Shown in pieces: positions 25,155-47,511 of a stretch of DNA of 63,051 nt. Position numbers and translations under genes: made by a program. The notes under the pieces were generated by a model. The model was not told the DNA's origin and did no database searches. It saw only the letters and a list, made by a program, of their open reading frames with translations. Position 1 is the first letter of the stretch. Every line of letters starts with the position of its first letter. The DNA comes from Azospirillaceae bacterium. Lineage in GTDB: Bacteria > Pseudomonadota > Alphaproteobacteria > Azospirillales > Azospirillaceae. Location: the NCBI GenBank assembly GCA_035627915.1, contig DASPKT010000427.1, positions 1 through 63,051 on the forward strand, in the 5' to 3' direction.

Positions 25155-26513
25155 TCAGAACCGCAGCGTGAACACGGTCCCGCCGCCGTCGGCGTCCGAG
25201 ACGCCGATGGTGCCGCCGTGGGCCAGCATGATCTGGCGGCAGAGCGACAGGCCGACGCCGGAGCCCTCGCGCTTGGTGGTGAAGAAGGGGACGAAGATCT
25301 TGTCGGCGACCTCGGGCGGGATGCCGGGGCCGTTGTCGGCGACCGACAGGATGACGCGGCCGTACTCGTCCAGGTGGGCGGCGACGCGGATGGCGGCGCC
25401 CTCGCGCCCCGCCAGCGCCTCCGCGGCGTTCTTCACCAGGTTGATCAGCACCTGGTCCAGCATGTCGGCGTCGGCCAGCACCTCCAGGCTGGGCGGCAGG
25501 ACCAGCGTGTCCAGCGCCACCCCGCGCTCCGCCAGCGCCGGGCCCATCAGCTTCTCCAGCCGCTCCATCATGTCCTTCAGGCGGAACCGCTCCATCTGCG
25601 GGCGCGGCACCTGGGTGAACTGGCGGTAGCGCTCCACGAAGCGCAGCAGCCCGCCGGCGCGGCGGGTCACCGTGTCCATCGCCTCCGCCACGTCGTTGAG
25701 GTCTTCGGCCAGGTCCTGCCTGTCGGCCAGCCGCTCCCGCAGGTCGCCCAGCAGCGACTGGGCGGTGCGGGCCAGCGAGGAGACGGGGGTCAGCGAGTTC
25801 ATCATCTCGTGCGTCAGCACCCGCACCAGGTCGTGCCAGGCGCGCACCTCCGTCGCCTCCAGCTCGCCCCCGATGTTCTGGAGGGAGACCAGCATGCGCG
25901 ACTCGCCGCCGATGGTCATCTGGGTCGCCTGGACGGTCAGCTGCTGAAGCCCCGGGCCGCCCACCACCTTCACCAGCCGCCGCTCCCCCGGCTTCAGGGT
26001 GCGCAGCGCGTCGGCGACGGTGCCGCCCTCGTCCAGCCGGCGGATCAGGTCCTCGTGCCCCAGCAGCTTGCGCGCGGCGTTGTTCAGCAGCTCCACCCGG
26101 CCGTCGGGGAAGACGGCGGCCAGCGCCACCGGCACGTGCTCCACCAGCACGTTCAGGTAGTCGGCCTGCTGCTCCTTGTCGGCGCGGGTGGCGCGGAACT
26201 TCTCCAGCACGCCGGAGAAGGCGGTGCCCAGCTCGTCGAAGGCGGTGCCGAGGCCCCGCATGGAGAAGCTCTGCTGGAAGTCGGAATGGGCGATGGCGGT
26301 CAGGAAGCGCGACAGCTCCCGGTTCGTCGTCTGCACCACCCGCAAGAGCCCGCCGATCTGAAGCAGCAGCGCCACCGCGACCAGGAACGCCGTCGCCCGG
26401 TACTCGGTGGCGACCAGCAGGATGCCCAGCAGCATGGAGGTGAGCGCCAGCAGCGCCACCCGGATGGTGACGTTCAGCTCGAACCGGCGTGCGCCGACAC
26501 GCTCAAAGCCCAT
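25155..26513 (-). CDS. Sensor histidine kinase with two closely spaced TM helices, a PAS-like region, HisKA and HATPase_c
   Basis: H-box is LTHEMMNSLTPV, N-box is LINLVKNAAEA, and G-boxes are DNGPGI and GSGVGLSL. The N-terminus has TM1 (TIRVALLALTSMLLGILLVA), a loop of only TEYR(A), then TM2 (TAFLVAVALLLQIGGLLRVV). Its start overlaps the regulator stop by 11 nt. Confidence 0.85.
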   Translation of the reverse strand: MGFERVGARRFELNVTIRVALLALTSMLLGILLVATEYRATAFLVAVALLLQIGGLLRVVQTTNRELSRFLTAIAHSDFQQSFSMRGLGTAFDELGTAFSGVLEKFRATRADKEQQADYLNVLVEHVPVALAAVFPDGRVELLNNAARKLLGHEDLIRRLDEGGTVADALRTLKPGERRLVKVVGGPGLQQLTVQATQMTIGGESRMLVSLQNIGGELEATEVRAWHDLVRVLTHEMMNSLTPVSSLARTAQSLLGDLRERLADRQDLAEDLNDVAEAMDTVTRRAGGLLRFVERYRQFTQVPRPQMERFRLKDMMERLEKLMGPALAERGVALDTLVLPPSLEVLADADMLDQVLINLVKNAAEALAGREGAAIRVAAHLDEYGRVILSVADNGPGIPPEVADKIFVPFFTTKREGSGVGLSLCRQIMLAHGGTIGVSDADGGGTVFTLRF

Positions 26514-27921
26514 GCTTTTCCATCCGGCGGTAAAGGGAGGCGCGGGTGATGCCGAGCTCGTCCGCGGTGTGGCTGATGTTGCCGGCGTGCTTCTCCAGCG
26601 CGCGGCGGATCACCTCGCGCTCCACCGCCTCAAGGTCCAGCGTCTTCAGGCTGAGCTCGCCGTCCGCGGCCGGGGCCGCGGCGGGGGCGGCGGCCGGCGC
26701 CGGGGCCGGCTGGCCGCCGGTGGAGGGCAGGGAGAAGTCCTCCGCCTCCAGCACGTCGGCGCCGGACAGGATCATCGCGCGCTCCACCGCGTGGCGCAGC
26801 GCGCGCACGTTGCCGGGCCATCGGTAGCTCATCAGCCGTTGCAGCGCCTCCGCCGAGACGCGCTTGCGCGGCATGTTGTACTTGCGGGCGTAGATGCCGA
26901 TGAAATGCTCCAGCAGGGCCGGGATGTCGTCGGGGCGGTCGCGCAGGGGGGGCAGGTTCAGCTCCACCGTGTTGACGCGGTAGAGCAGGTCCTGGCGGAA
27001 CATGTCCTCGCGCTGCAGCTGCTCCACCGGCATGTTGGTGGCGCAGATCAGGCGCACGTCGATGGGGATCGGCTTGTTGCCGCCGACGGGGAGCACCACC
27101 CGCTGCTCCAGCACCGACAGCAGCTTGCTCTGGAGGTAGAGGGGCAGGTTGCCGATCTCGTCCAGGAACAGGGTGCCGCCCTGGGCGGCGACGAAGCGGC
27201 CGATGCGGTCGTCCTTGGCGTCGGTGAAGGCGCCGCGCTTGTGGCCGAACAGCTCGCTCTCGAACAGCGTCTCCGCCACCGCACCCAGGTCGACCGAGAC
27301 GAAGACCTGGTCGGCGCGGCGGGAGCGGCGGTGGATCTCCCGCGCGATGACCTCCTTGCCGGTGCCGTTCTCGCCCAGGATCAGGACGTTGGCGTCGGTG
27401 GGGGCGGCGCGGTCGACCAGGTCCAGCACCCGGCGCATGACCGGGGAGCTTCCCACCAGCGAGGTCGGCGGGCCGTCCAGCGCCGCCGTCAGCTCCTTGT
27501 TGCGGGCCCCCAGGTGCGCCGCCTCGCGCCGGGACGCCGTCAGCTTGATGGCGGACAGCAGCGTCGCCACCAGCCGCTCGTTCTGCCAGGGCTTCAGCAC
27601 GAAGTCGGTGGCGCCCTGCTTCATCGCGTCCACCGCCGTGCCGACGTCGCCGTAGGCGGTGATGAGGATGACCGACAGCGTGGCATCGATCTCCAGCACC
27701 TTCTTCAGCCACTGGAACCCCTCGCGCCCGGTGTTGGCGCCGATGGCGAAGTTCATGTCCAGCAGCACCGCGTCGAAGGCGTTCTCCTTCAGCAGCACCG
27801 GGATGCGGTCGGGGCGGGATTCCGTGTGGACGGCGATGCCCTCTCGCTTCAGCAGCAGGCGGGCGGCGATCAGGATGTCCTCGTCGTCGTCCACCATCAG
27901 GACGCGGCCGGCGGTGGCCAT
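26503..27921 (-). CDS. Sigma-54-dependent response regulator (NtrC-family enhancer-binding protein)
   Basis: Receiver domain (VLMVDDDEDIL...DAVLLDMNF...KP). AAA+ domain with Walker A GENGTGKE, a GAFT loop variant (GHKRGAFTDA) and ESELFGH. C-terminal Fis-type HTH (NISHTADELGITRASLYRRM). Confidence 0.9.
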   Translation of the reverse strand: MATAGRVLMVDDDEDILIAARLLLKREGIAVHTESRPDRIPVLLKENAFDAVLLDMNFAIGANTGREGFQWLKKVLEIDATLSVILITAYGDVGTAVDAMKQGATDFVLKPWQNERLVATLLSAIKLTASRREAAHLGARNKELTAALDGPPTSLVGSSPVMRRVLDLVDRAAPTDANVLILGENGTGKEVIAREIHRRSRRADQVFVSVDLGAVAETLFESELFGHKRGAFTDAKDDRIGRFVAAQGGTLFLDEIGNLPLYLQSKLLSVLEQRVVLPVGGNKPIPIDVRLICATNMPVEQLQREDMFRQDLLYRVNTVELNLPPLRDRPDDIPALLEHFIGIYARKYNMPRKRVSAEALQRLMSYRWPGNVRALRHAVERAMILSGADVLEAEDFSLPSTGGQPAPAPAAAPAAAPAADGELSLKTLDLEAVEREVIRRALEKHAGNISHTADELGITRASLYRRMEKHGL

Positions 27922-27976
27922 GGTCGGTCGTGCTCGTGTCGTGGAAGGGGCGTCGTGGAAAGGGCGTCGGGGGCGG

Positions 27977-28005
27977 TGTCCGGATGCGGACAGGGCAACT
28001 GTCCG
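27977..28005. promoter_or_regulatory. Candidate enhancer (UAS): TGTCCG-GATG-CGGACA palindrome plus an overlapping GGACAG-N5-CTGTCC
   Basis: A 16-bp palindrome lies at 27977-27992, and a third TGTCCG half-site at 28000-28005. It sits ~100 bp upstream of a sigma-54 -24/-12 element. The same 16-mer occurs as its reverse complement at 33428-33443. Confidence 0.55.
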
Positions 28006-28089
28006 ATATCGTACATCTGCACGGAAGCGAACGCATCCATTTTCGGCCGCATCCGGTCAGGAACCCAGGATTTCCGCGGCTTCCCGATC

Positions 28090-28104
28090 TGGCACGCCCC
28101 TTGC
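28090..28104 (+). promoter_or_regulatory. Sigma-54 (-24/-12) promoter TGGCAC-GCCCC-TTGC
   Basis: cTGGCACGccccTTGCc matches YTGGCACG-N4-TTGCW with correct spacing. It lies 48 nt upstream of the small-ORF ATG at 28152 and next to the divergent sigma-54 EBP gene. Confidence 0.7.
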
Positions 28105-28151
28105 CATCAGGGGAACAACGGACCGACACCTTCACTCAAGGGAAGCCAGCC

Positions 28152-28298
28152 ATGACCGACATCTCCATCCAGGCCACCGACACCTTCTCCTTCGGCAGCT
28201 TCCTGCGCGACGTGGTCGCCGAGCTGGCGAACCCGACGCTGGCCGTCGCCGCCGCCTTCGCCTGCGTGACGGTGAAGATGTTCGCCGGCTTCATGTGA
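28152..28298 (+). CDS. Small (48 aa) predicted membrane peptide, unknown family
   Basis: MTDISIQATDTFSFGSFLRDVVAELANPTLAVAAAFACVTVKMFAGFM. AAGGGA lies 9-14 nt upstream of the ATG. G/C third positions are strongly preferred (about 46 of 48 sense codons by eye). The C-terminus is a hydrophobic helix. The gene is the first in a sigma-54 transcript. It is a paralogue-like counterpart of 33561..33713. Confidence 0.5.
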   Translation: MTDISIQATDTFSFGSFLRDVVAELANPTLAVAAAFACVTVKMFAGFM

Positions 28299-28357
28299 TC
28301 GGGGTCGAGTAAAGCCGGCAAACCTCCGGGCGGGGGCCCAGGGCGGGGAGGGAAGAA

Positions 28358-30811
28358 ATGTTCCAGCACTACGCGACCATGGCCTGGCGCAACCTTGCGC
28401 GCCACCGGCTGCACGCCGCGATCAACCTGCTCGGCCTCAGCGTCGGGCTGGCGGCGGCGCTGCTGATCTTCATGTATGTGCGCCACGAACTCTCCTACGA
28501 GCGGCATTTCGCCAATTCCGACCGCATCTACCGCCTGGCGACGGAGCCGCTGGAGCCGGGGCAGGGCGACGACGGGCGCAAGCACGCCCTGTCGCCGCAG
28601 CCGATGGCCGAGCTGCTGATGCAGGCCGCCGACCAGATCGGCATCGAGGCGGCGACCCGGTACGAGTTCGGGACCTTCATCCTGGCGCGGGGCGAGGCGC
28701 GCTTCTTCGAGAAGACCACCTTCGTCCACGCGGACTTCTTCCGCATGTTCGACTTCCCCTTCCGCCACGGTGACCCGGCGACGGCCCTGGCGACGCCGGA
28801 CGGGATGGTGATGTCCCGCGAGCTGGCCCAGAAATACTTCGGCGACGCCGATCCCATCGGCCAGGCCATCCTGGTCAACAACAAGCACCTGTTCCGCGTC
28901 ACCGGCGTGCTGGACGAGCCGCGCGGCCCGTCGGAGCTGGAGGGGGAGCTGTTCGTCTCCACCGCCAACCCGGTCCTGTCGCCGCCGCTGTGGATGAACC
29001 AGAACGGCCCGTCCTTCGTGATGGCGCGGCCCGGCGTCAGCCAGGCGGAGCTGCAGCGCCGCATGGACGGGGCGCTGGAGGGGCTGCTGCCGCAGCAGGC
29101 GGTCGAGGACAACGGCCGCTTCCGCGTCCTGCTGGAGCGGCTGGCCGACACCCACCTGCATTCCGGGCGCTGGGTCTTCATCAACCAGGCCCCGGCCTCC
29201 GCCGACACGGTCTACGCCATGATCGGCATCGGGCTGGCGCTGCTGGCGATGGTCGCCATCAACTACACCAACCTCTCCACCGCGCGGGCCACCCTGCGCG
29301 CAAAGGAGATCGGCCTGCGCAAGGCGCTGGGCGCCGGCCGGGCGCAGCTGATCCGGCAGTTCATCGGCGAGTCGGTGGCGCTGTCGCTGGCCGGCCTGCT
29401 GCTGGCGCTGGTGCTGGTGGAGCTGTCGCAGACGGCCTTCGCCGACCATCTCGGCATCCGCTTCATGGGCTCCCTCGTGGGCGATCCCGTGGCGCTGCTG
29501 GCAGGCCTCGCCCTGGCGCTCGGCCTCGGCCTGCTGGGCGGCGCCTATCCGGCGCTGGTGCTGAGCGGCTTCCGCCCGGCCGCGGTGCTGCGCGCCGCCC
29601 GGGTGAACGTCGGCCCGGCCTCGCGGCTGCGCCAGGTGCTGGTCGTCACCCAGTTCGCCACCGCCGTGGTGCTCGCCATCTCCACCGTCGTCGTCTATGC
29701 CCAGGCCCGCTACGGCGCCACCGCCAACCTGGGCTTCCAGCCGGAGATGCGGGTGGTGCTGTCCGGCCTCGACCGCGAGCCCGTGGTGCAGCGGCGCGAG
29801 GTGCTGCGGGAGGAGATGCTGCGCATCCAAGGCGTCACCGGTGCCGCCACCTCCTGGATCGTGCCGGGCGCCTCGGGCTCCATGGGGCGCGGGCTCAGGC
29901 GGGCCGACCAGTCGCCGGAGGACGACACCAACGTCCAGCTCTTCCGCATCGGGCACGAGTACCTGGACGTGCTGGGCGTGCGCCTGCTGGCCGGCCGCAC
30001 CTTCTCCCGCGAGGTCCCCGCCGACGTGATGCCCCCGGCCAGCCGCGGCCCTGTCACCGGTGCCGTCAACGTGGTCATCAACCGCGAGGCGGTGCGCCGG
30101 CTGGGCTTCGCCTCGCCCGAGGCGGCGCTGGGCCAGCCGCTGGTCTTCGAGGACGACAACCGCGATCCCGTCACGGTCGTCGTGGTCGGGGTCAGCGACA
30201 ACGTCCGCCAGCACAGCGCCCGCAGCGAGATCCGCCCGGCCCTCTACATCGTGGAGCAGGAGGGGGTGTACCCGCAGTCCTTCATGACCCTGACCCTGGA
30301 CGGGCGCGAGCTGGACCGGACGCTTGCCGCCATCGACGCCACCTGGCGCCGCTTCGCCCCCGACCTCCCGGTGCGCCGGCGCTTCCTGGACGACCAGCTG
30401 GAGGCCATGTACCTCCAGGACCGGCGCCTTGCCGGCGTGCTGGCGGGCTTCTCCGGCCTGACCCTGGTCATCGCCTGCCTGGGCCTGTTCGCCCTGGCCG
30501 CCAGCGAGGCGGAGCGGCGGACCAAGGAGATCGGCGTGCGCAAGGTGCTGGGCGCCGGCGTGCCCGCCCTGGTGCGGCTCATGGTGTGGCAGTTCTCCCG
30601 CCCCGTCGCCATCGCCATCCTGATCGCCTGGCCGCTCGCCTGGTGGATGATGGGGAACTGGCTGCAGGGCTTCGTCCACCGCATCCCGCTGGACCCCACC
30701 CTGTTCCTCCTGACCGGGGTGGCTACCCTGTTGGTGGCATGGATGACCGTCGCCGGTCACGCGTTCAAGGTAGCGTCGGCCAGGCCCATCCAGGCCCTCC
30801 GATACGAGTAA
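28358..30811 (+). CDS. ABC transporter permease, duplicated FtsX/MacB-type (permease 1, 817 aa)
   Basis: The N-terminal TM is MFQHYATMAWRNLARHRLHAAINLLGLSVGLAAALLIF. It has two large extracytoplasmic domains, each followed by an FtsX-type 3-TM bundle (...KEIGLRKALGA... and ...KEIGVRKVLGA...). The C-terminus is ...IQALRYE. No ATPase gene lies in its operon. Confidence 0.85.
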   Translation: MFQHYATMAWRNLARHRLHAAINLLGLSVGLAAALLIFMYVRHELSYERHFANSDRIYRLATEPLEPGQGDDGRKHALSPQPMAELLMQAADQIGIEAATRYEFGTFILARGEARFFEKTTFVHADFFRMFDFPFRHGDPATALATPDGMVMSRELAQKYFGDADPIGQAILVNNKHLFRVTGVLDEPRGPSELEGELFVSTANPVLSPPLWMNQNGPSFVMARPGVSQAELQRRMDGALEGLLPQQAVEDNGRFRVLLERLADTHLHSGRWVFINQAPASADTVYAMIGIGLALLAMVAINYTNLSTARATLRAKEIGLRKALGAGRAQLIRQFIGESVALSLAGLLLALVLVELSQTAFADHLGIRFMGSLVGDPVALLAGLALALGLGLLGGAYPALVLSGFRPAAVLRAARVNVGPASRLRQVLVVTQFATAVVLAISTVVVYAQARYGATANLGFQPEMRVVLSGLDREPVVQRREVLREEMLRIQGVTGAATSWIVPGASGSMGRGLRRADQSPEDDTNVQLFRIGHEYLDVLGVRLLAGRTFSREVPADVMPPASRGPVTGAVNVVINREAVRRLGFASPEAALGQPLVFEDDNRDPVTVVVVGVSDNVRQHSARSEIRPALYIVEQEGVYPQSFMTLTLDGRELDRTLAAIDATWRRFAPDLPVRRRFLDDQLEAMYLQDRRLAGVLAGFSGLTLVIACLGLFALAASEAERRTKEIGVRKVLGAGVPALVRLMVWQFSRPVAIAILIAWPLAWWMMGNWLQGFVHRIPLDPTLFLLTGVATLLVAWMTVAGHAFKVASARPIQALRYE

Positions 30812-30842
30812 GGGCTTGCATCCGTTCCCTGCTCGTGACCTG

Positions 30843-30880
30843 GGGCCCGTCCGGACCGCTCTCCGGACGGGCCCGTTTTC
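30843..30880 (+). terminator. Rho-independent terminator
   Basis: GGGCCCGTCCGGA-ccgctc-TCCGGACGGGCCC forms a 13-bp perfect stem and is followed by GTTTTCCTTT. It lies 32 nt after the permease-1 stop. Confidence 0.75.
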
Positions 30881-30995
30881 CTTTGGGTTCTTTGCGGGGG
30901 CGTTCCGGCCATGCCCGCCTCAGCGGCAGTGGGGGGGCGGGGACAGTCCGGCGACAGCATGTGGCCTGAGCGCTCCCGGTCCCGACACTCACCCC

Positions 30996-31134
30996 GTCAT
31001 TCCCGCGGAGGCGGGAATCCAGGCATTCAGCGTGCTATGTCCCTGGGCGGAAAGGCGCCCACGTCACCGCCGGCGCCCTTTGCCCGGGTTGGACAGCAGG
31101 CCGAATACCTGGACCCCGCCTCCGCGGGGGTGAC
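30996..31134. repeat. 139-bp REP/MITE-like element bounded by palindromic modules
   Basis: Left end GTCATTCCCGCGGAGGCGGGAATCCAGG. Right end CCTGGACCCCGCCTCCGCGGGGGTGAC. It is homologous in ends, length and internal ends to 8978..9117. Confidence 0.65.
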
Positions 31135-31169
31135 GGCAAAAGGCGCGGAGGGCGCCCCCGTCCCCTATC

Positions 31170-33335
31170 TCACCCCGGCACGCTGCGCGGGGTGCGGTGG
31201 CGGCCGGAGCGGGTGAGCTCCTCCTCCAGGGCGGCGACCAGGTCGGCGACGGCGAAGGGCTTGGGCAGGAGGCGCGCCTCGTCCTTCGGCACCAGCTCCT
31301 CGCTGTAGCCGGTCATCAGCACGACCGGCAGCAGGGGCCAGCGCTGGCGCACGATGCGCAGCAGGCCGACGCCGCTGAGCTCCCCCGGCATGACGATGTC
31401 GCTCAGCACCAGGTCCGCCTCGTCGCCGGCCTCCAGCATCCGCAGCGCCTCGTCGCCCGAGGTGGCGCGGCGCAGGCTGTAGCCGAGGTCGCCCAGGATG
31501 GCGCTCAGCATGCTGCCGACGACCGGGTCGTCCTCGACCAGCAAAATGCGGCCGCCGACCGCGTTCAGGCTGCGCCGCAGGTCGCCGCGGCCGGCCGCCG
31601 GCACCTTGTCGGAGCGCGGCAGCAGGATGGTGACCGTCGTGCCGAGGCCCTGGCGGCTGTCGATCAGGATGGTGCCGTGCGACTGGCGGGCGAAGCCGTA
31701 GGCCTGGCTGAGGCCGAGGCCGGTGCCGCCGTTCGCCTGCTTGGTGGTGAAGAAGGGCTCGAACGCGCGGGCCACCGTGTCGGGCGACATGCCGGCGCCG
31801 GTGTCCTCCACCGACAGGGCGACGTAGGCGCCGGTCAGCTCGCCCGGGTCCACGCCGGCGCTGCGGTTGGTGTTGCGCGCGCGGATGGTCAGCACGCCCG
31901 GTTCCGGCATTGCGTCGCGGGCGTTCGCCAGGATGTTGAGGATCGTGACCTCGAACTGGGTCTGGTCCACCTCGACCGTCCAGAGGTCGGGGGCGATGTC
32001 CACCTCGAGCCTGATGTCGGGGCGCAGCGTGCGCGCCATCAGCTCCGACATGGCGAGCAGCTGGTCGCGGATGGCGATCGGCTTGGGCTCCAGCGGCTGG
32101 CGGCGCGCGAAGGCGAGAAGCTGCCGGGTCAGCTTGGCGCCGCGGTCGACGGCCTGGTGCCCGGCCTGGAGCACGGGCGCCAGGCCGGCGGCGGACGCCT
32201 TGCGCTCCACCAGGGTCAGGCAGGCCGCCATGGCCTGGAGCAGGTTGTTGAAGTCGTGCGCGACGCCGCGGGTCATCTGGCCCATGGCCTCCAGCCGCCG
32301 CGCCGCCTCGTAGGCGATGTCCTGGCGGCGGCGGATGCGCAGCTCGCGCACGAACAGCCAGGCGAACAGCCCGGCCAGGGCGACGCAGAGCAGCCCGCCG
32401 CCGGCCATCAGCAGGGCGGCCTGCCGCAGCGGCGCCGCGAAGATCTCCCGGGGCAGGCCGAAATGGATGGACCAGCCGACATCCGGCAGCTTGCGGTAGA
32501 CCGAGCGCAGCGGGAACCCGTCCAGCCCGACGCTGTCGTAGAAGCCCTCCGGCTCCTCCCGGCGGACCTGGAGCACGCGGGCGCTGGCCATGGTGCCGAC
32601 CAGCGCCTCGTCGCCGCGGGTGCGGGCGACGATGTGGCCGCTGCCGTCCACCACCACGCCGATCCAGTCGGAGGGCAGCCCGTTCGCCAGCAGGATCTCC
32701 TTGAGGTGGCGGGGATCGACCACGGCGGACAGCAGGTAGCGCAGCCTTCCGTCGCGCACGACGGGCACCCGCACCGCGAAGGCCGCCCGGTTGCGCGGGC
32801 CGCGCAGGACCGTGCCGACGACCGGCGCGCCCGTGGCGACGGCGCGGGCGTGGCTCTCCAGGTCGACGACCTTGCCGGGGGCGCCGGCCACCTGCTCGGG
32901 CGCGTCGGCCAGCCGGTTGCCCTCCGGGTCGCTCAGGACCAGCGTCTTCCACAGGGGCTGGTGCGCCCGCGCCCGCTCCGCCATGGCGAAGAAGGCGGCG
33001 CGGTCGAAGCCGCCGGCGTCAACCGGCAGCGCCGCCGCCAGCATCTGCAGGCTGGCGACCTGGGCCGCCAGGTCGCCCTCCAGCCGCTGGGTCAGGTGCG
33101 CCACGCGGTTGGCGGCATCCTGCTCCATCGCCGCCTGCCGCTGTTGCAGCCAGGCGGCGCCCAGCATGACCGACAGCCCGACGATGGGCAGCAGGGCCGC
33201 CAGCGCCAGCAGGCTGAGGTGCCGCTGGGAAGAGGGACTGCCCGCGCGGCCGGACGGGGAACCGGGACGGGATCGGAGCGGCCACAAGGCGTCTGGCGTC
33301 CCTTCGCTGGATGCCGGGGCGGCGGGGAGCGGCAT
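31170..33335 (-). CDS. Hybrid sensor histidine kinase/response regulator with a periplasmic Cache-like sensor domain
   Basis: 721 aa. TM1 is followed by ~270 aa of extracytoplasmic domain, then TM2. H-box MTRGVAHDFNNLLQAM. HATPase motifs NILANARDAM, DTGAGM and GTGLGLS. C-terminal receiver (ILLVEDDPVV...DLVLSDIVMP...KP). Confidence 0.85.
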   Translation of the reverse strand: MPLPAAPASSEGTPDALWPLRSRPGSPSGRAGSPSSQRHLSLLALAALLPIVGLSVMLGAAWLQQRQAAMEQDAANRVAHLTQRLEGDLAAQVASLQMLAAALPVDAGGFDRAAFFAMAERARAHQPLWKTLVLSDPEGNRLADAPEQVAGAPGKVVDLESHARAVATGAPVVGTVLRGPRNRAAFAVRVPVVRDGRLRYLLSAVVDPRHLKEILLANGLPSDWIGVVVDGSGHIVARTRGDEALVGTMASARVLQVRREEPEGFYDSVGLDGFPLRSVYRKLPDVGWSIHFGLPREIFAAPLRQAALLMAGGGLLCVALAGLFAWLFVRELRIRRRQDIAYEAARRLEAMGQMTRGVAHDFNNLLQAMAACLTLVERKASAAGLAPVLQAGHQAVDRGAKLTRQLLAFARRQPLEPKPIAIRDQLLAMSELMARTLRPDIRLEVDIAPDLWTVEVDQTQFEVTILNILANARDAMPEPGVLTIRARNTNRSAGVDPGELTGAYVALSVEDTGAGMSPDTVARAFEPFFTTKQANGGTGLGLSQAYGFARQSHGTILIDSRQGLGTTVTILLPRSDKVPAAGRGDLRRSLNAVGGRILLVEDDPVVGSMLSAILGDLGYSLRRATSGDEALRMLEAGDEADLVLSDIVMPGELSGVGLLRIVRQRWPLLPVVLMTGYSEELVPKDEARLLPKPFAVADLVAALEEELTRSGRHRTPRSVPG

Positions 33336-33394
33336 CCTAGCCGAAAGCGCCCGGCGGCTTCACCCGCCTTGTCGGCATGGGAGGGGCGGGCGGC

Positions 33395-33450
33395 TGTCCG
33401 GTTCGGCGGGACCCTGTCCGCCGGCGCTGTCCGCATCCGGACAGTGTCCG
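33395..33450. promoter_or_regulatory. Candidate enhancer (UAS) cluster: TGTCCG-CATC-CGGACA palindrome plus three further TGTCCG half-sites
   Basis: TGTCCG occurs at 33395, 33415, 33428 and 33445. The 16-bp palindrome at 33428-33443 is the exact reverse complement of 27977-27992. It lies ~70 bp upstream of the second sigma-54 promoter. Confidence 0.55.
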
Positions 33451-33475
33451 GAAACGAACGGGGTAGATCGAACGA

Positions 33476-33488
33476 TAAGTTATTGATT
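33476..33488 (-). promoter_or_regulatory. IHF-consensus site (AATCAATAACTTA on the minus strand)
   Basis: Matches WATCAA-N4-TTR exactly. It is located between the UAS cluster and the -24 element, in the only AT-rich patch of this intergenic region. Confidence 0.45.
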
Positions 33489-33505
33489 TTGCACGCGCCG
33501 GACGC

Positions 33506-33520
33506 TGGCACGCCGCTTGC
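33506..33520 (+). promoter_or_regulatory. Sigma-54 (-24/-12) promoter TGGCAC-GCCGC-TTGC
   Basis: cTGGCACGccgcTTGCt lies 41 nt upstream of ATG 33561. It matches the 28089-28105 promoter at 15 of 17 positions. Confidence 0.7.
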
Positions 33521-33560
33521 TGATAATGCGGCGGGTAGAACACAAGAGGGGACGCCCGTC

Positions 33561-33713
33561 ATGACCGAACCGATCACCCGCACGGACACGCCCGCCACGG
33601 AGCGCACCGTCACCGAGCGCATCGAGGATGCGGTCACGTCAGTCAACCCGGACGTCTGGCTCGCCAGCGCCCTCGTGGTGGTGGTGATCCGATGCCTGGG
33701 CGGCCTCGTCTGA
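33561..33713 (+). CDS. Small (50 aa) predicted membrane peptide, unknown family
   Basis: MTEPITRTDTPATERTVTERIEDAVTSVNPDVWLASALVVVVIRCLGGLV. AGAGGGG lies 9 nt upstream of the ATG. It is hidden inside the shadow ORF 31197..33713. Its layout matches the 28152 peptide: MT(D/E) start, acidic/Thr-rich N-half, an NP motif, and a hydrophobic helix containing one Cys. Confidence 0.45.
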   Translation: MTEPITRTDTPATERTVTERIEDAVTSVNPDVWLASALVVVVIRCLGGLV

Positions 33714-33745
33714 CCGTAGTCTCGTCGAGCGGGAACGACATCAAA

Positions 33746-35005
33746 ATGGGTATGGACCGAAAGATCGAGAAGCGCTCGCGCTTCAAGCGCCAGCACCTGA
33801 TCGGCGCCGCCGTCGGCGCGCTGGCCCTGGGGGCGGCGGGCTTCATGGCCGTCGGCGGCTCCGGCGGCAGCACCGTCCGGGTGGCCGAGGAGCGGCTGGT
33901 GACGGCCGAGGTGAAGCAGGGGCAGTTCGAGGACTTCATCCCCGTCCGGGGCGCCGTGGAGCCGCTGAACAGCGTGTTCCTGGACTCGGTCGAGGGCGGC
34001 CGGGTGGAGAAGCGCTTCGCCGAGGCCGGCCAGATGGTCAAGGCCGGCCAGCCCCTGGTGGAGCTGTCCAACACCGACCTGCAGCTGGAGGTCATCGCCC
34101 GCGAGGCGCAGGTGATCGAGCAGCTGAACCAGCTCCGCACGGTGGAGCTGGGCCTCCAGACCAACCGCCTCACCAACAAGCGCGAGCTGGTGGAGGTCGA
34201 GTACAAGCTGGTGCAGCTGAAGCGCGACCTCGACCGCCGCTCGCAGCTGGTGAAGACGAACGCCGTCAGCCAGGCCCAGTTCGAGGACAGCAAGGACGAG
34301 TACGACTACTACCAGCGCCGCCGCGAGGTCCTGCAGGAGAGCATCCGCGTCACCGACGGCATGCGCACCGAGCAGTACGAGCAGCTGAAGGCCGCCACCT
34401 CCAAGCTCCAGGAGAACCTGGAGTACGCGCGCCGCAACCTGGAGAACCTGGTGGTCAAGGCGCCTGTCGACGGCCAGTTGACCCAGCTGGAGGCGGAGAT
34501 CGGCCAGACCATGCAGCGCGGCCAGCGCCTGGGCCGGGTCGACCGCATCGACGGCTTCAAGGTCTCCGCCCAGGTCGACGAGTTCTACCTGCCGCGCCTG
34601 GACGTGGGCCAGACCGCCGAGGTGCAGATGGGCTCGGCCAACACGGTGCTGCGCGTCGCCAAGATCTACCCGCAGGTCCGCGACGGCCAGTTCCGGGTGG
34701 ACCTGGAGTTCGCCGCCGAGCCGCCCAAGGACATCCGCAGCGGCCAGACGCTCCAGATGCGCCTGAAGCTGGGCGCCACCACGTCGGCGCTGCTGATCCC
34801 CAACGGCGCCTTCTTCCAGGACACCGGCGGCGACTGGATCTTCGTCGTCGGCTCCGACGGCAAGTACGCCACCAAGCGCCGCGTCCAGCTCGGCCGCCGC
34901 AACGCCCAGGTCATCGAGGTCAAGGGCGGCCTGGAACCGGGCGAGCGCGTCATCACCTCCGCCTACGGCGACATGGTCCGCATGGACCGCATCCAGCTCA
35001 ACTGA
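33746..35005 (+). CDS. HlyD/MacA-type periplasmic adaptor (membrane fusion protein)
   Basis: N-terminal TM (LIGAAVGALALGAAGFMAV), a lipoyl-like hairpin, a long coiled coil (QLEVIAREAQVIEQLNQLRTVELGLQ...) and a beta-barrel C-domain. The alternative start at 33752 is equally possible. Confidence 0.8.
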   Translation: MGMDRKIEKRSRFKRQHLIGAAVGALALGAAGFMAVGGSGGSTVRVAEERLVTAEVKQGQFEDFIPVRGAVEPLNSVFLDSVEGGRVEKRFAEAGQMVKAGQPLVELSNTDLQLEVIAREAQVIEQLNQLRTVELGLQTNRLTNKRELVEVEYKLVQLKRDLDRRSQLVKTNAVSQAQFEDSKDEYDYYQRRREVLQESIRVTDGMRTEQYEQLKAATSKLQENLEYARRNLENLVVKAPVDGQLTQLEAEIGQTMQRGQRLGRVDRIDGFKVSAQVDEFYLPRLDVGQTAEVQMGSANTVLRVAKIYPQVRDGQFRVDLEFAAEPPKDIRSGQTLQMRLKLGATTSALLIPNGAFFQDTGGDWIFVVGSDGKYATKRRVQLGRRNAQVIEVKGGLEPGERVITSAYGDMVRMDRIQLN

Positions 35006-35034: not shown

Positions 35035-35715
35035 ATGCTGAAACTCGTGAACCTGACCAAGGTCTACCGCACCGAAGAGGTGGAGACGACCGCGCTGAAT
35101 TCCGTGAACATCCATGTCAAGCACGGCGAGTTCGTCGCCATCATGGGCCCGTCGGGCTGCGGCAAGTCCTCGCTGCTGAACATCATCGGCATGCTCGACA
35201 ATCCCAGCGGCGGCGAATACTGGTTCGACGGCGAGAACGTCGCCGGCTACGGCGAGCGCAAGCTGGCCGACATCCGCAAGAAGAACATCGGCTTCATCTT
35301 CCAGAGCTTCAACCTGATCGACGAACTCACCGTGTTCGAGAACGTCGAGCTGGCGCTGCTCTACCACGACATCCCGGCGCGCGAGCGCAAGGAGCGGGTC
35401 AAGGCGGCGCTGGAGAAGGTGAACATCGCCCACCGCGAGACCCACCTGCCGCAGCAGCTCTCCGGCGGCCAGCAGCAGCGCGTCGCCATCGCCCGCGCCG
35501 TCGTCTCCAAGCCCAAGATGCTGCTGGCGGACGAGCCGACCGGCAACCTCGACAGCGCCAACGGCGACGAGGTCATGAAGATGCTGACCGACCTGAACGC
35601 CGAGGGCACGACCATCGTCATGGTCACCCACTCCATGCCGCACGCCCAGTACGCGCGCCGCATCATCAACCTGTTCGACGGCCAGGTCGTGGCCGAGAAC
35701 CTGCGCGCCGCCTGA
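35035..35715 (+). CDS. ABC transporter ATP-binding protein (MacB/LolD-type NBD)
   Basis: Walker A GPSGCGKSS, Q-loop, signature LSGGQQQRVAIARA, Walker B MLLADEPT and H-loop VTHS. Confidence 0.9.
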   Translation: MLKLVNLTKVYRTEEVETTALNSVNIHVKHGEFVAIMGPSGCGKSSLLNIIGMLDNPSGGEYWFDGENVAGYGERKLADIRKKNIGFIFQSFNLIDELTVFENVELALLYHDIPARERKERVKAALEKVNIAHRETHLPQQLSGGQQQRVAIARAVVSKPKMLLADEPTGNLDSANGDEVMKMLTDLNAEGTTIVMVTHSMPHAQYARRIINLFDGQVVAENLRAA

Positions 35716-35762: not shown

Positions 35763-38219
35763 ATGCTGCGCAACTACATCGTCACTGCGGTACGCAACCT
35801 GCTGAAGCACCGGCTCTACTCGGCGATCAACATCGCCGGGCTGGCGGTCGGGCTGGCGGCCTGCATCCTGATCGCGCTGTTCGTGCGCGACGAGTTCAGC
35901 TACGAGCGCTTCTGGCCGAAGCTGGACCGGATGCACCGGGTCGCCCTGACCTTCTACATCCCGGGCCGCGAGCCCATGATGGTCGGCGACAGCCAGTTCG
36001 TCATGGGCCCGCTGCTGAAGGAGGACTTCCCCGGGATCGAGGAGGTGGTCCGCTTCGCGCCCCAGCGCACCCTGGTGGACCGCGCCGACAACCCCGCGCT
36101 GGAGGTGCTGACCTACGCCGACCCCGGCGTCTTCCGGGTGTTCGGCTACGAGTTCCTGCGCGGCACGGCCGACGGCGCGCTGGACCGCCCCGGCACCGTC
36201 GTGCTCACCCAGCGCATGGCGCGCAAGTGGTTCGGCGACGAGGACCCGGTCGGCCAGTCCCTGAAGGTCGACGGCCAGCACCTGCTGGAGGTCACCGGCG
36301 TGGTGAAGGACCTCCCTCACAACACGCACCTGAAGTCGGTCGACTTCCTGGTCGCCATGGAGTCGAAGAGCAACCGCCTGAACAAGGAGGCGCGGGAGAG
36401 CTGGACCACCATGCAGGGGTCCACCTACGTGCTGCTGCGCGACGGCGCCTCCGCCGCCGAGGTGCAGGCCGGGCTGAAGGACTTCGTCGCCCGCCGCGCC
36501 GGCAACATCGCCCTGCCGGGCGGCGCCGTCGCCGCCACCTCCATCTTCAAGTACGACCTCCAGCCCGTCGCCGACATCCACCTGCACTCCGCCGGCTTCC
36601 AGGGCGAGGAGGACCCGGGCGACTTCGGCATGGTCATGGCCTTCGCCGGCATCGCCGTCCTGATCCTGGGCATCGCCTGCATCAACTTCATGAACCTGGC
36701 GACGGCCCGCGCCTCGGGCCGGGCGCGGGAGGTCAGCATCCGCAAGGTGGTGGGCGCCCAGCGCCGCCAGATCGTGGCGCAGTTCCTGGGCGAGTCCGTG
36801 GTCGTCACCCTGCTGGCGCTGGTCATCGCCGTCGCCCTGGTGGAGCTGGCGCTGCCCTGGTTCTCCGGCTTCGTGAACAAGCCGCTGGGCATCGATTATG
36901 CCGGCAGCCTGGGCGACGTGGCGATGCTGGTGGCCCTGACCGTCCTGGTCGGCGTCGCCGCCGGTTCCTACCCCGCCTTCGTCCTGTCCGCCTTCAAGCC
37001 GGCGGCGGTGCTGAAGGCCAACAAGTCCTCGGCCGGCGGCGGGCGGCTGCGCGCGGTGCTGGTCGTGGTGCAGTTCGCCATCTCCATCTCCCTGATGGTG
37101 GCGACCGCCGTGGTGTACGCCCAGATGGAGTACGCGAAGTCCATGCGCCTCGGCTACGACCGGGAGCACGTGCTGGCGATCTCCGGCACCCACCGCGGCG
37201 CCGCCCGCGCGGCGATCGACAGCCTGCGCGAGGAGATCGGCAAGCTGCCGGGCGTCGTCACCGTGGCCCGCGCCGGCGGCTATCCCACGGACGGGAACGA
37301 GAACAACAACATCGTCCAGATGCCGGACAGCGATCCCAGCAACCCGCTGGTGATCGGCAACCAGAGCGCCGACGCCAACTTCTTCAAGGCGCTGGGCATC
37401 CAGACCGTGGCCGGCCGCACCTTCGACGAGAGCTTCGCCACCGACGTGCTGCCCGAAGACCCGGCGGAGGCGGCCAAGCGCCCGTCCGCCCTGGTGCTGA
37501 ACCGCGCCGCCGTGAAGCGCCTGGGCTTCGCCTCGCCGGAGGCCGCCATCGGCCAGACCTTCAAGATCGGCGTCAGCGCCGACGGGCTGTCCCCGGTGAC
37601 GGTGGTCGGCGTGGTGGACGACGTCCTCCAGGGCTCCATCCGGGCCGCGGTGAAGCCGATGATGTACTACATGGCCGACCCGTACCCCTTCCTGGTCGTG
37701 CGCCTGTCCGGCCAGGAGCTGAACGCCACGGTCAACCGGATCGACGAGACCTGGAAGCGCCTGGTCCCCGGCACGCCGATCCGCCGCACCTTCCTGGAGG
37801 ACAGCTTCAACGCCCTCTACGCGGCGGAGGAGCGGCAGGGCCAGATGTTCGCCACCTTCTCCGGCCTCGCCATCGTCATCGCCTGCCTGGGCCTGTTCGG
37901 CCTGGCCTCCTTCACCGCGGAGAAGCGCACGAAGGAGATCGGCATCCGCAAGGTGCTGGGCGCCAGCGTGCCCGAGATCGTGCGGCTGCTGGTGTGGCAG
38001 TTCTCCCGCCCGGTGCTGGTGGCGAACCTGATCGCCTGGCCGCTCGCCTGGTACGCCATGCGCGACTGGCTGGACGGCTTCGCCTACCGCGTCGAGCTGA
38101 GCCCGCTCTACTTCGCGGTGGCCGGGATCGCGGCGCTGACCATCGCCTGGGCGACGGTCGCCAGCCACGCCACCCGGGTCGCCATGACCAAGCCCTCCAG
38201 CGCCCTGCGCTACGAATAA
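35763..38219 (+). CDS. ABC transporter permease, duplicated FtsX/MacB-type (permease 2, 818 aa)
   Basis: Starts MLRNYIVTAVRNLLKHRLYSAINIAGLAVGLAACILIALFVRDEFSYE... It has two FtsX modules and ends ...SSALRYE. Confidence 0.85.
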   Translation: MLRNYIVTAVRNLLKHRLYSAINIAGLAVGLAACILIALFVRDEFSYERFWPKLDRMHRVALTFYIPGREPMMVGDSQFVMGPLLKEDFPGIEEVVRFAPQRTLVDRADNPALEVLTYADPGVFRVFGYEFLRGTADGALDRPGTVVLTQRMARKWFGDEDPVGQSLKVDGQHLLEVTGVVKDLPHNTHLKSVDFLVAMESKSNRLNKEARESWTTMQGSTYVLLRDGASAAEVQAGLKDFVARRAGNIALPGGAVAATSIFKYDLQPVADIHLHSAGFQGEEDPGDFGMVMAFAGIAVLILGIACINFMNLATARASGRAREVSIRKVVGAQRRQIVAQFLGESVVVTLLALVIAVALVELALPWFSGFVNKPLGIDYAGSLGDVAMLVALTVLVGVAAGSYPAFVLSAFKPAAVLKANKSSAGGGRLRAVLVVVQFAISISLMVATAVVYAQMEYAKSMRLGYDREHVLAISGTHRGAARAAIDSLREEIGKLPGVVTVARAGGYPTDGNENNNIVQMPDSDPSNPLVIGNQSADANFFKALGIQTVAGRTFDESFATDVLPEDPAEAAKRPSALVLNRAAVKRLGFASPEAAIGQTFKIGVSADGLSPVTVVGVVDDVLQGSIRAAVKPMMYYMADPYPFLVVRLSGQELNATVNRIDETWKRLVPGTPIRRTFLEDSFNALYAAEERQGQMFATFSGLAIVIACLGLFGLASFTAEKRTKEIGIRKVLGASVPEIVRLLVWQFSRPVLVANLIAWPLAWYAMRDWLDGFAYRVELSPLYFAVAGIAALTIAWATVASHATRVAMTKPSSALRYE

Positions 38220-38242: not shown

Positions 38243-40717
38243 ATGCTCGGGAACTACCTGACCGTCGCCTTCCGGAACCTGGTCAAGCACCGGCTCTACT
38301 CGGCGATCAACATCTTCGGCCTCGCGGTCGGCCTGGCCGCCGCGATCCTGATCCTGCTCTTCGTCCGCAACGAGCTGAACTACGACGGCTTCCACCGGGA
38401 CGCCGACCGCCTCTACCAGGTGGCGGTGGACGCCGAGATCCCCGGCCGCCCCGCCAACAAGATCTCGCGCACCATGCCGCCGGTCGGGCCGGCCATGAAG
38501 GACTACTTCGCCGAGGTGGAGGACGTCCTGCAGCTGATCCAGCAGAGCTCCGTCGTGCGGCGCGGCGGCGACGTCCAGTTCTCCGAGCAGATGATCAGCA
38601 CGACGCCGAACTTCTTCGACTTCTTCACCTACCGCTTCGTGAAGGGCGACCCGGCGCGGGCGCTGGCGGAGCCCGACTCGGTCGTCCTGACCGAGAGCAC
38701 GGCGCGCAAGTACTTCGGCGACGCCGACGCGCTGGACCAGGTCCTCACCATCGACCAGACCGACGTGCGGGTGACCGCCGTCGTCGCCGACCTGCCGCCC
38801 AACACGCAGCTGGACTTCACCATGCTGCTGAACCGGCAGTCCAAGGCCAGCCGCGCGGCGCCGTCGCTGCTGGAGAGCTGGGGCGCGCTCTGCTGCTTCA
38901 CCTACGTGAAGCTGAAGGAGGGCGCCGACGCCGACCAGGTGCGCGCCAACCTGAAGGCGTTCATGGAGGCGAAGGCCCCGGTCCAGCGCACGCCGACCGG
39001 CACCTTCAGCCCGGCCGAATCCTTCAAGCTGATGCTGCGCAACGTCACCGACGTGCACACCGACCCGATGCTGGGCGACCTGCGGCCGGGCACCAGCCGG
39101 ACGGAGATCTACATCTTCTCCGCCGTGGCGGCCCTGGTCCTGGTCATCGCCAGCATCAACTTCATGAACCTGGCGACCGCCCGCGCCACCCAGCGGGCGC
39201 GCGAGGTCAGCGTCCGCAAGGTGGTGGGCGCCAGCCGCACCCAGATCATCGCCCAGTTCATCGGCGAGTCCGTGCTGCTGACCGTGATCGGGCTGGTGCT
39301 GTCCATCGCGCTTGTGGAGCTGGCGCTGCCCTACTACTCCGACTTCCTGGGCCTGAAGCTCAGCTTCAACTACCTGTCGGACCCGGTCCTGCTGCTGATG
39401 CTGCTGGGGCTGACCCTGGTGGTCGGCACCGCCGGCGGCGCCTATCCCGCCTTCTTCCTGTCCGCCTTCAAGCCGGCGGCGGTGCTGAAGGGGGCGTCCA
39501 GCGGCACCTCGGGCGGCTCCGGCCGGCTGCGCGCGGCGCTGGTGGTGGTGCAGTTCTCCATCTCCATCGCGCTGATGACGGCCACCGCCGTGGTCTACGG
39601 CCAGCTCCTGTTCGCCACCGGCAAGGACCTGGGCTTCGACCGGGAGAACGTGGTCGTGCTGGAAGGCGTGGGCCGCCGCGACGCCCGCGACCGCCGCGAG
39701 GCGCTGATGGAGGCGCTGCGCAAGGACCCGCGCGTCGTCTCGGTGGCGTCGGGCAGCGTCATGCCGGGCGACGGGGACGAGAGCAACACCGGCATCCGCC
39801 TGCCGGGCGGCGACCCCAACGACAACCTGACGCTGCGCAATGACAGCGTGAACTACGACTACTTCCGCACCATGGGCATGCGGCTGGTGGCCGGCCGCGA
39901 CTTCGACCGGGAGCGGGGCGGCGACGCGCTGGTCCGCCCGGCGACGCCGCCGACGGCCGAGAACCCGCAGGTGCTGAAGGGGGCCGCGGTGGTCAACCGC
40001 TCCGCCGTCGCCCGGATGGGCTTCGCCTCGCCGGAGGCGGCGCTGGGCCAGACCTTCCAGGCCGGCGACGCCCCCAACAGCTCGCTGGAGCTGACCATCG
40101 TCGGCGTGCTGGAGGACTTCCACTACCGCTCCGTCACCGACCCGATCGCCGCCGGCTTCTTCTACATCGACCCGGCCGACCAGACGCAGGTGGCGGTGCG
40201 GATCAAGGGCGGCGACGTGCCGGGCGCGCTCTCCTTCGTCGACCGCACCTGGAAGGAGGTCTATCCGGACCTGCCGCTGCGCCGCCAGTTCCTGGACGAG
40301 CGCCTGCAGCAGCTCTACGAGCGCGAGCGCACCACCTCGGAGATGTTCGCCGCCTTCTCCGGCCTCGCCATCGTGATCGCCTGCCTGGGCCTGTTCGGCC
40401 TGGCCTCCTTCACCGCGGAGCGGCGGACCAAGGAGATCGGCCTGCGCAAGGTGCTGGGCGCCAGCGTGTCCGACATCGTGCGGCTGCTGGTCTGGCAGTT
40501 CAGCAAGCCGGTGCTGGTGGCGAACCTGATCGCTTGGCCGATCGCCTGGTACGGCGCGTCGCGCTGGCTGGAGGGCTTCGCCTACCGCATCGACCTCAGC
40601 CCGCTGATCTTCCTGGGCGCAGGATTCGCCGCCCTGCTGATCGCCTGGGCCACGGTCGGCATGCACGCCACCCGGGTGGCGGCGGCGAAGCCGGTGACGG
40701 CCTTGCGCTACGAGTGA
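38243..40717 (+). CDS. ABC transporter permease, duplicated FtsX/MacB-type (permease 3, 824 aa)
   Basis: ATG at 38243 (MLGNYLTVAFRNLVKHRLYSAINIFGLAVG...) lies inside track ORF 36227..40717, whose first 2 kb is a shadow frame. The protein ends ...VTALRYE. Confidence 0.85.
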   Translation: MLGNYLTVAFRNLVKHRLYSAINIFGLAVGLAAAILILLFVRNELNYDGFHRDADRLYQVAVDAEIPGRPANKISRTMPPVGPAMKDYFAEVEDVLQLIQQSSVVRRGGDVQFSEQMISTTPNFFDFFTYRFVKGDPARALAEPDSVVLTESTARKYFGDADALDQVLTIDQTDVRVTAVVADLPPNTQLDFTMLLNRQSKASRAAPSLLESWGALCCFTYVKLKEGADADQVRANLKAFMEAKAPVQRTPTGTFSPAESFKLMLRNVTDVHTDPMLGDLRPGTSRTEIYIFSAVAALVLVIASINFMNLATARATQRAREVSVRKVVGASRTQIIAQFIGESVLLTVIGLVLSIALVELALPYYSDFLGLKLSFNYLSDPVLLLMLLGLTLVVGTAGGAYPAFFLSAFKPAAVLKGASSGTSGGSGRLRAALVVVQFSISIALMTATAVVYGQLLFATGKDLGFDRENVVVLEGVGRRDARDRREALMEALRKDPRVVSVASGSVMPGDGDESNTGIRLPGGDPNDNLTLRNDSVNYDYFRTMGMRLVAGRDFDRERGGDALVRPATPPTAENPQVLKGAAVVNRSAVARMGFASPEAALGQTFQAGDAPNSSLELTIVGVLEDFHYRSVTDPIAAGFFYIDPADQTQVAVRIKGGDVPGALSFVDRTWKEVYPDLPLRRQFLDERLQQLYERERTTSEMFAAFSGLAIVIACLGLFGLASFTAERRTKEIGLRKVLGASVSDIVRLLVWQFSKPVLVANLIAWPIAWYGASRWLEGFAYRIDLSPLIFLGAGFAALLIAWATVGMHATRVAAAKPVTALRYE

Positions 40718-43242: not shown

Positions 43243-43274
43243 ACGACGAACAGACGTCCTGGGGGATGCCCGCC

Positions 43275-46818: not shown

Positions 46819-47063
46819 GGACGCTCGTCGCCCGGCGCCGGCGGCGCGTCCCCGGCGCGGTCGAGGAACCAGAGCATGTCCTCGGGCTTCGCCTCGCCGG
46901 CGCGGCGCTTGAAGAAGGCGGCGGCCGTCTCGACGGCGCCGACCTTCTCCGCCACGGCGACGGCGATCCACTGGTTCAGGGAGACGCCGTCCTCCTTGGC
47001 CAGCCTCTGCGCCGCCTCCTTGATCGAGCGGGGGAGCTTGAGCGGGTAGGATGCCTTGTTCAT
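46815..47063 (-). CDS. Ribbon-helix-helix/HicB-like antitoxin
   Basis: 82 aa, MNKASYPLKLPRSIKEAAQRLAKEDGVSLNQWIAVAVAEKV... It lies directly downstream of the PIN gene. Confidence 0.6.
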   Translation of the reverse strand: MNKASYPLKLPRSIKEAAQRLAKEDGVSLNQWIAVAVAEKVGAVETAAAFFKRRAGEAKPEDMLWFLDRAGDAPPAPGDERP

Positions 47064-47075
47064 GGCTGCGTTCCT

Positions 47076-47498: not shown

Positions 47499-47511
47499 AT
47501 CTCATGAGATA

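Follow-up and report, generated by a model that had tools for sequence, protein, structure and literature searches.

A 48-residue membrane peptide encoded ahead of a sigma-54-controlled FtsX permease in Azospirillaceae: a possible accessory subunit of a type VII ABC transporter

What might a membrane peptide of 48 residues contribute at the head of a transcript that otherwise encodes a large permease? The question is raised by a locus in a 63,051-nucleotide stretch of DNA (70-77% G+C) from an Azospirillaceae bacterium, hereafter the window. An earlier note on this DNA had described a small open reading frame, here pep1 (28152..28298, plus strand), as coding for a peptide with a C-terminal hydrophobic helix, and as the first cistron between a sigma-54 promoter and a permease gene without an adjoining ATPase gene; both descriptions are upheld by our analysis. 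The translation and coordinates proved exact. Direct reading places the Shine-Dalgarno-like AAGGGA of the note at 28138..28143 (plus strand), 8 nt before the ATG. As the note had it, the start lies 48 nt past the -12 GC of the promoter, and 59 nt separate the stop codon (28296-28298) from the permease ATG at 28358.

Divergently from pep1, on the minus strand, lie the genes of an NtrC-type sigma-54-dependent response regulator (26503..27921; REC, AAA+ and HTH_8 in Pfam) and of a sensor histidine kinase of 452 aa (25155..26513; PAS and HATPase_c). A hydropathy scan places two adjacent transmembrane helices in the kinase at residues 17-35 and 42-60, joined by a loop of about 6 residues, and the kinase is predicted to be of the intramembrane-sensing type. 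Every NCBIfam match of the regulator falls under the equivalog cut-offs; the regulator genes are 88% identical at the DNA level between the window and the related Azospirillaceae MAG DASPNP01. On the other side of pep1, permease 1 (28358..30811, plus strand; 817 aa) is a duplicated FtsX/MacB_PCD protein in which Pfam recognizes two FtsX stretches and one MacB_PCD stretch. It has a strong GGAGG ribosome-binding site of its own.

A second sigma-54 unit follows on the plus strand, and its small peptide and promoter are as the earlier note described them. The palindrome TGTCCGCATCCGGACA (33428..33443), the upstream site (UAS) of promoter 2, precedes that promoter, TGGCACGCCGCTTGC (33506..33520), then the gene of a 50-aa peptide, pep2 (33561..33713), a periplasmic adaptor of the MFP/HlyD family (33746..35005; 419 aa, assigned by Pfam and orthologues) and an ABC ATPase (35035..35715; 226 aa, Pfam), the only ATPase found in the locus. 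The unit ends with four duplicated FtsX permeases in tandem (35763-38219, 38243-40717, 40795-43242 and 43266-45749, delimited by Pfam and start codons); they share the one ATPase gene, and relatives carry two to at least four copies. For the second permease, of 818 aa, Pfam reports MacB_PCD and FtsX twice each. What lies between the two sigma-54 units differs among relatives: in the window this interval holds a hybrid kinase on the minus strand (31170-33335), in a sister MAG small receiver-domain genes (L002 5685-7691), and in Aerophototrophica a gene of the animal-haem-peroxidase family (L018 6140-7597). The flanks of the operon contain, by Pfam, a PLP enzyme, a PIN toxin, Mfd, a cytochrome oxidase and sugar enzymes; the PIN-domain gene (46815-47501, minus strand), between the pump operon and mfd, is preceded by a small ORF with which it probably forms a toxin-antitoxin pair.

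The length of pep1 says nothing by itself, since in this G+C-rich DNA 73 ORFs of at least 40 aa overlap 14 kb. Very long antisense ORFs opposite Pfam-supported genes are likewise artefacts of about 72% G+C; the one opposite permease 1 (28136-30760, minus strand, 874 aa) was rejected on that ground, and a longer ORF starting at a GTG at 27930 was rejected as its start would precede the promoter. The composition of pep1 is that of a gene. All 48 third codon positions are G or C, where nearly all had been claimed, and the G+C fractions at the three positions (0.54/0.46/1.00, against 0.72/0.46/0.97 in permease 1) give a codon signature that matches the neighbouring genes in a stretch that is genic on neither strand. 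Among 785 stop-terminated segments of 30 aa or more in the window, pep1 is one of just 2 that finish with a hydrophobic 20-mer carrying no more than one charge; pep2 fails this filter, with a D and an R among its last 20 residues.

The control elements are also rare by chance. The promoter 1 element TGGCACGCCCCTTGC (28090..28104, plus strand; -24 GG, -12 GC), found by pattern scan, is conserved in the sister MAG (L001). Its pattern, TGGCAC-N5-TTGC, occurs twice in 63 kb against an expectation of 0.13, both times directly upstream of pep1 or pep2 and 41-48 nt from the ATG. With GG and GC elements at this spacing, upstream sites, and conservation in orthologous loci, these sequences have the features of sigma-54 promoters. 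The palindrome TGTCCG-N4-CGGACA was counted three times upstream of the two peptides, against 0.22 expected, and two of the copies, TGTCCGGATGCGGACA and TGTCCGATATCGTACA, start at 27977 and 28000 (27977..28015, plus strand) in front of promoter 1. The same motif stands upstream of the orthologous promoters (L001, L002, L006, L007, L011-L014, L016, L008 and L018), and the pair at 27977..28015 likely represents enhancer sites for the response regulator.

A comparison with the sister MAG (L001, L002, L003, L010) offers a greater level of detail on what is selected in pep1. Its homologue (L001:5736-5894) is a 52-aa peptide, MTDLTHTTAHGTDSLARIGAFLRAVGAELADPTLAVAAALACVTVKLFAGFM, with the promoter and palindromes also kept. 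The earlier note had named loss of the frame at syntenic loci as evidence against coding; the frame is intact here, down to the first three codons, and the pair differs by an in-frame indel of four codons in the N-terminal half. For this one sequence pair from two lineages, the C-terminal 26 codons show 7 synonymous against 3 conservative nonsynonymous changes (N/D, F/L and M/L), which corresponds to a dN/dS of about 0.13 and, by our own estimate, a binomial P of about 0.006. The N-terminal half, with 16 nonsynonymous and 2 synonymous differences, is indistinguishable from neutral. A natural variant of pep1 in a read assembly differs by F14L only, a change that also falls in the N-terminal half. 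The syntenic comparison, with its synonymous bias in the C-terminal half, does not refute the coding reading, and pep1 is very probably a real protein-coding gene for a membrane helix.

The gene had been called unannotated, and this does not hold: the same 48-aa product is called by three independent pipelines, in assemblies from ENA, Logan and JGI, and for the homologue there is the record HYC03549.1, a "hypothetical protein". The pep1 gene is uncharacterised rather than unannotated. The 90% cluster of HYC03549.1 also holds a 487-aa protein, P0132, which is unlike the peptide and evidently a clustering artefact. Beyond these records pep1 is scarce. As a query against 5.8 billion proteins it matched only itself, and an exhaustive profile search of 1.84 billion representatives returned 8 matches, 6 of which are peptides of this group. 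A genome scan with the permease as query found one locus, a metagenome scan with the pep1 alignment found the same two lineages only, and blastn against plasmids returned only unrelated permeases. Across protein, genome and metagenome-contig searches, pep1 is thus known from two lineages only. Pfam (E up to 10) and NCBIfam have nothing for either peptide, and Rfam has no family in window positions 27800-33900, which include both peptide genes.

The predicted product has a variable acidic N-terminal part and two helices, one spanning residues 9-24 and a hydrophobic one spanning 28-47 and reaching the C-terminus, with A-N-P breaking the chain between them. These limits are those of an AF2 model that, built on a four-sequence alignment with a pLDDT of 68, is indicative only; the hydropathy of residues 30-48 is 1.94. 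The N-terminal part carries a net charge of -3, and the sole basic residue of the hydrophobic helix lies 7 residues from its end. By the positive-inside rule, the positive charge near the C-terminus and the acidic N-terminus would probably place the N-terminal part in the periplasm. No signal peptide, lipobox or cleavage motif was seen in the sequence. A lipoprotein or Sec signal was rejected, as the N-terminus is acidic, A-F-A-C is no lipobox and the Cys is missing from several family members.

The distinct position of pep1 becomes clearer next to pep2, whose syntenic loci we fetched via adaptor orthologues. According to the resulting alignment, pep2 defines an undescribed small-protein family of the Azospirillaceae, which we name NPDLWL. 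In nine lineages of the Azospirillaceae its members, of 43-52 aa, stand as first cistron in sigma-54 MFP-ABC-FtsX operons. A pep2-type ORF lies between promoter and adaptor gene in the sister MAG, Niveispirillum sp. KHB5.9, N. irakense, Nitrospirillum amazonense, Oleisolibacter albus, another Azospirillaceae MAG, Aerophototrophica crusticola and a second assembly (L018) with an identical peptide; the loci with such a gene before the MFP gene are the window, L002, L006, L007, L011, L012, L013 and L017/L018. Cultured carriers are Nitrospirillum amazonense, Niveispirillum irakense, Oleisolibacter albus and Aerophototrophica crusticola. The variable, mostly acidic N-terminal part is followed by the motif (E/D)R(I/V)(E/L)DA, an invariant P-D-x-W-L (P30, D31, W33, L34) and a hydrophobic helix that ends the protein; a longer form of the family motif, ER(I/V)EDA..V-NPD(L/V)WL, comes just before the transmembrane helix. 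Between close pairs, pN in the core is 0.04-0.14 against a pS of 0.42-0.50, a pattern indicating that the core is under purifying selection, and the N-terminal part is neutral. The single Cys on which the earlier note remarked is unconserved, with none in the Oleisolibacter, N. irakense, Niveispirillum and Aerophototrophica members.

Outside the Azospirillaceae the operon is found without the peptide. No peptide ORF is present at the same operon in Paremcibacter, Kordiimonas, Iodidimonas or a gammaproteobacterial MAG (0 of 4), in which the adaptor is 51-55% identical and the kinase, the regulator and the operon are kept. The promoter motif is present in three of these outgroups, as is the palindrome, which Kordiimonas lacks. 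The absence of the peptide from all four operons suggests that it is an Azospirillaceae addition to an older, widespread module. That module, a loop-less kinase and sigma-54 regulator divergent from an MFP-ABC-duplicated-FtsX operon, extends from the Azospirillaceae to the four outgroups (L008, L014, L015, L016), and most of its copies carry TGTCCG-N4-CG(G/T)ACA sites. We found no description of such a sigma-54/MacB-FtsX module in the literature. Outgroup adaptor genes (L008 9001-9081; L015 6001-) are called with an extension of 15-40 aa before the conserved MDRKIEK, so either these start calls are wrong or the space is used otherwise than in peptide-bearing lineages.

Is pep1 a member of this family? 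The layout that the earlier note saw in common is real: in both peptides the C-terminus lies 20 residues past N-P, position -7 is K/R and position -3 is G. The same distance of 20 residues is found in pep1 and 7 of the 10 listed family members, and pep1 fits the family in length (43-52 aa), in the end of its helix 17-20 residues after (N/H/D)-P, and in its position as first cistron between a sigma-54 promoter and a type VII ABC transporter gene. Yet pep1 is without D-x-W-L, having P-T-L-A-V in place of the invariant P-D-x-W-L, and the pep2-family HMM misses it (rank about 36th of 993 segments, E about 42). An hhalign comparison of pep1 with the family aligns the two in register, 30-50 on 30-50, with a P of 0.0048 and a probability of 7%. 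At best, the alignments hint that pep1 is a diverged paralogue of the pep2 family.

The two genes had also been taken for independent copies, and this is probably not so. Their first eight bases, ATGACCGA, are identical, and among the listed sequences this start is confined to the window lineage and the sister MAG lineage, which includes the one relative carrying pep1. Together with the shared promoter and enhancer-site architecture, the common start suggests a lineage-specific duplication. Aerophototrophica has the same regulator-permease layout, with a regulator 81% identical to that of the window. Permease 1 is 70% identical to its orthologue in L001 and 50% to that in L018 (Aerophototrophica), and 37-41% to its paralogues in the window. 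In front of the orthologous Aerophototrophica permease the promoter lies 42 nt before the ATG, with no ORF between. The simplest history would be that the peptide gene was duplicated in the window lineage after the Aerophototrophica split, diverged fast and then came under purifying selection on its helix. The copy would thereby have been re-fitted to the fast-evolving permease beside the kinase-regulator pair, the permease termed orphan in the earlier note.

We tentatively favor the explanation that pep1 serves the co-expressed type VII ABC (MacB/FtsX-type) permease as an accessory or modulatory subunit, although we would put its chances somewhat below even. The phosphorylated NtrC-type regulator would bind the TGTCCG-N4-CGGACA palindromes and activate sigma-54 RNA polymerase at 28090-28104, giving a transcript that starts near 28116 and would carry pep1 and then permease 1. 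Translated from its own Shine-Dalgarno sequence and ATG, the peptide would form a short amphipathic helix, an N-P kink and a terminal hydrophobic helix of 20 residues, as far as the low-confidence AF2 model is a guide. This helix may pack against the transmembrane helices of the permease and tune its assembly, activity or specificity, by analogy with VraH-VraDE and AcrZ-AcrB. Four observations lead us to favor such a role: wherever it occurs the peptide is linked to transporter genes, the membrane helix is the part under selection, a diverged and fast-evolving permease goes with the diverged copy, and VraH provides a precedent among FtsX-family transporters. Against it, the outgroups keep the operon without the peptide and the orthologous Aerophototrophica permease lacks pep1, which indicates that the peptide is dispensable for the core machine.

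A bolder version, which we regard as doubtful, would make the peptide family the first small-protein subunit of a Gram-negative MacB-type tripartite pump, with pep1 a newborn paralogue fitted to the permease by the kinase and that permease sensing for the loop-less kinase. If true, the permease-as-sensor arrangement would be a sigma-54 version of Bce-style flux sensing. In either form, a lineage-specific peptide added to a widespread pump operon, with a second copy in one sub-lineage, offers a natural comparison of pumps with and without it; the narrow distribution limits its significance.

The main rival holds that the peptide is a feedback connector which binds the intramembrane-sensing kinase and adjusts its activity, as MgrB does with PhoQ. 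A kinase whose two helices are joined by so short a loop needs a membrane-embedded input, pep1 adjoins the kinase-regulator pair, as does the single Oleisolibacter peptide, and the peptide is under the promoter that the regulator is taken to control. The genomic distribution points the other way. In Niveispirillum, N. irakense, Nitrospirillum and L013 there is no kinase-regulator pair within 9 kb upstream of the peptide, which is always co-oriented with transporter genes in these four, and the outgroups have the same kinase type without any peptide. A feedback regulator would also not need a second, strongly diverged copy. We thus consider a feedback connector unlikely.

A different fate for the peptide, as cargo, is suggested by the order of the genes, which resembles that of the RiPP cluster darABCDE: a MacB-type machine might expel the peptide from the membrane, or the product might be a signal- or toxin-like peptide. 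The best NCBIfam match of the adaptor is indeed the darobactin export adaptor DarC, over its full length, at 221 bits, and the permeases match DarB at 77-136 bits, but these scores are far under the equivalog cut-offs of 450 for DarC and 700 for DarB. The position as first cistron fits an exported product, as does the hypervariable N-terminal part, which is seen in some secreted peptides. However, Pfam recognizes no maturation enzyme, radical-SAM or otherwise, in the operon and the flanking ORFs within 19.7-53.6 kb, and a RiPP locus was rejected on that account. Further points against a cargo are the lack of a Sec or lipoprotein signal and of any cleavage motif, the unconserved Cys, the conservation of the hydrophobic helix itself, and outgroup operons that do without the peptide. 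Export of the peptide by the machine therefore appears distinctly unlikely.

A further reading, to which we give little credence, makes pep1 a newcomer with scarcely any function, arisen lately by duplication or insertion, and translated yet only marginally useful. It would account for the restriction to two lineages, the absence from the orthologous Aerophototrophica locus and the loss of the family-invariant D-x-W-L. It sits poorly with purifying selection on the C-terminal half across a divergence at which permease 1 DNA retains only 78% identity, and with a perfect adaptation of codon bias (GC3 of 100%).

Least probable of all is a cis-acting translated leader, in which only the act of translation would matter, by opening the mRNA or coupling to the permease: a short first-cistron ORF with a neutrally evolving N-terminal half would suit it, but the C-terminal half of pep1 and likewise the pep2 core are conserved at the amino-acid level through synonymous changes, the spacer to the permease (59 nt, 107 nt in L001) is unconserved and in the window unstructured (z +1.49), with no terminator and no Rfam family, permease 1 has its own GGAGG site, and the orthologous Aerophototrophica permease has the same kind of promoter without a leader ORF. 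The leader or coupling role considered in the earlier note is thus unsupported. An attenuator or terminator was rejected as well, there being no terminator, a window spacer that folds worse than shuffled sequences and an L001 hairpin that is not conserved. This hairpin, a strong GC structure (GGGGGCGCCCCU...AGGGGGCGCC) at L001 5905-5935, follows the pep1 homologue of the sister MAG; it lacks a U-tract, and the window has nothing comparable.

Returning to the accessory subunit that we favor, comparison with known systems places both the permeases and the peptide. The permeases resemble ADOP proteins (TIGR03434) in their size of about 800 aa, their two MacB_PCD+FtsX halves, their many paralogues and the occurrence of some without an adjoining ATPase gene. 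Scores of 300 (permease 1) and 314 bits against a cut-off of 622 indicate relatives of ADOP that fall short of the curated family. Acidobacteria are the group in which ADOP genes are described, and we know of no report of a sigma-54 promoter or a leading small ORF at such genes. The darobactin operon darA-darBCD-darE likewise has a short peptide gene followed by genes for an adaptor, an ATPase and a duplicated FtsX permease. It differs in encoding the radical-SAM enzyme DarE, which has no equivalent at the pep1/pep2 locus, and in a peptide composed of a leader and a Trp-rich core, where the peptide here is a membrane helix.

MgrB, a feedback inhibitor of PhoQ, crosses the membrane once and measures about 47 aa; its gene is induced by the very two-component system on which the protein then acts. 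It has no sequence relation to pep1, its kinase PhoQ has a periplasmic domain, and its gene is monocistronic, in contrast to the peptide here, which keeps company with transporter genes. The locus shares with Bce-type modules an intramembrane-sensing kinase with two transmembrane helices and a minimal loop. Bce-type modules further comprise a BceB-type permease with one extracellular domain and an OmpR-type regulator, neither of which is present here; in their place are duplicated FtsX permeases and an NtrC-type, sigma-54-dependent regulator.

Only a few small membrane proteins, AcrZ, VraH and KdpF among them, are known to tune transporters, and most came to light by accident; to our knowledge no such tuner is known for Gram-negative MacB-type pumps. 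A review of MacB states that small-protein partners cannot be excluded (PMC5985334). In E. coli, the single-helix AcrZ of about 49 aa modulates the tripartite AcrAB-TolC pump (PMC5985334). Its likeness to pep1 lies in being a small single-helix protein; the class of pump differs, that of AcrZ being RND. The AcrZ helix sits at the N-terminus, the tail is cytoplasmic, and the gene is not part of the pump operon. VraH is a small transmembrane protein needed by the FtsX-family transporter VraDE, for only part of its function (PMC5786555). Compared by description only, VraH is named third in its operon (vraDEH), in a Gram-positive host, with a basic C-terminal YYKRREEKGK and a BceB-type permease that has one extracellular domain. 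The pep1 gene, in contrast, comes first in its operon and is controlled, unlike VraH, by a sigma-54-dependent regulator. Common to both is a small transmembrane protein encoded in an operon with a type VII ABC permease and switched by a two-component system (PMC5786555). A small membrane protein encoded with its transporter would thus be of a known kind, and as a partner of a Gram-negative MacB-type pump it would be new.
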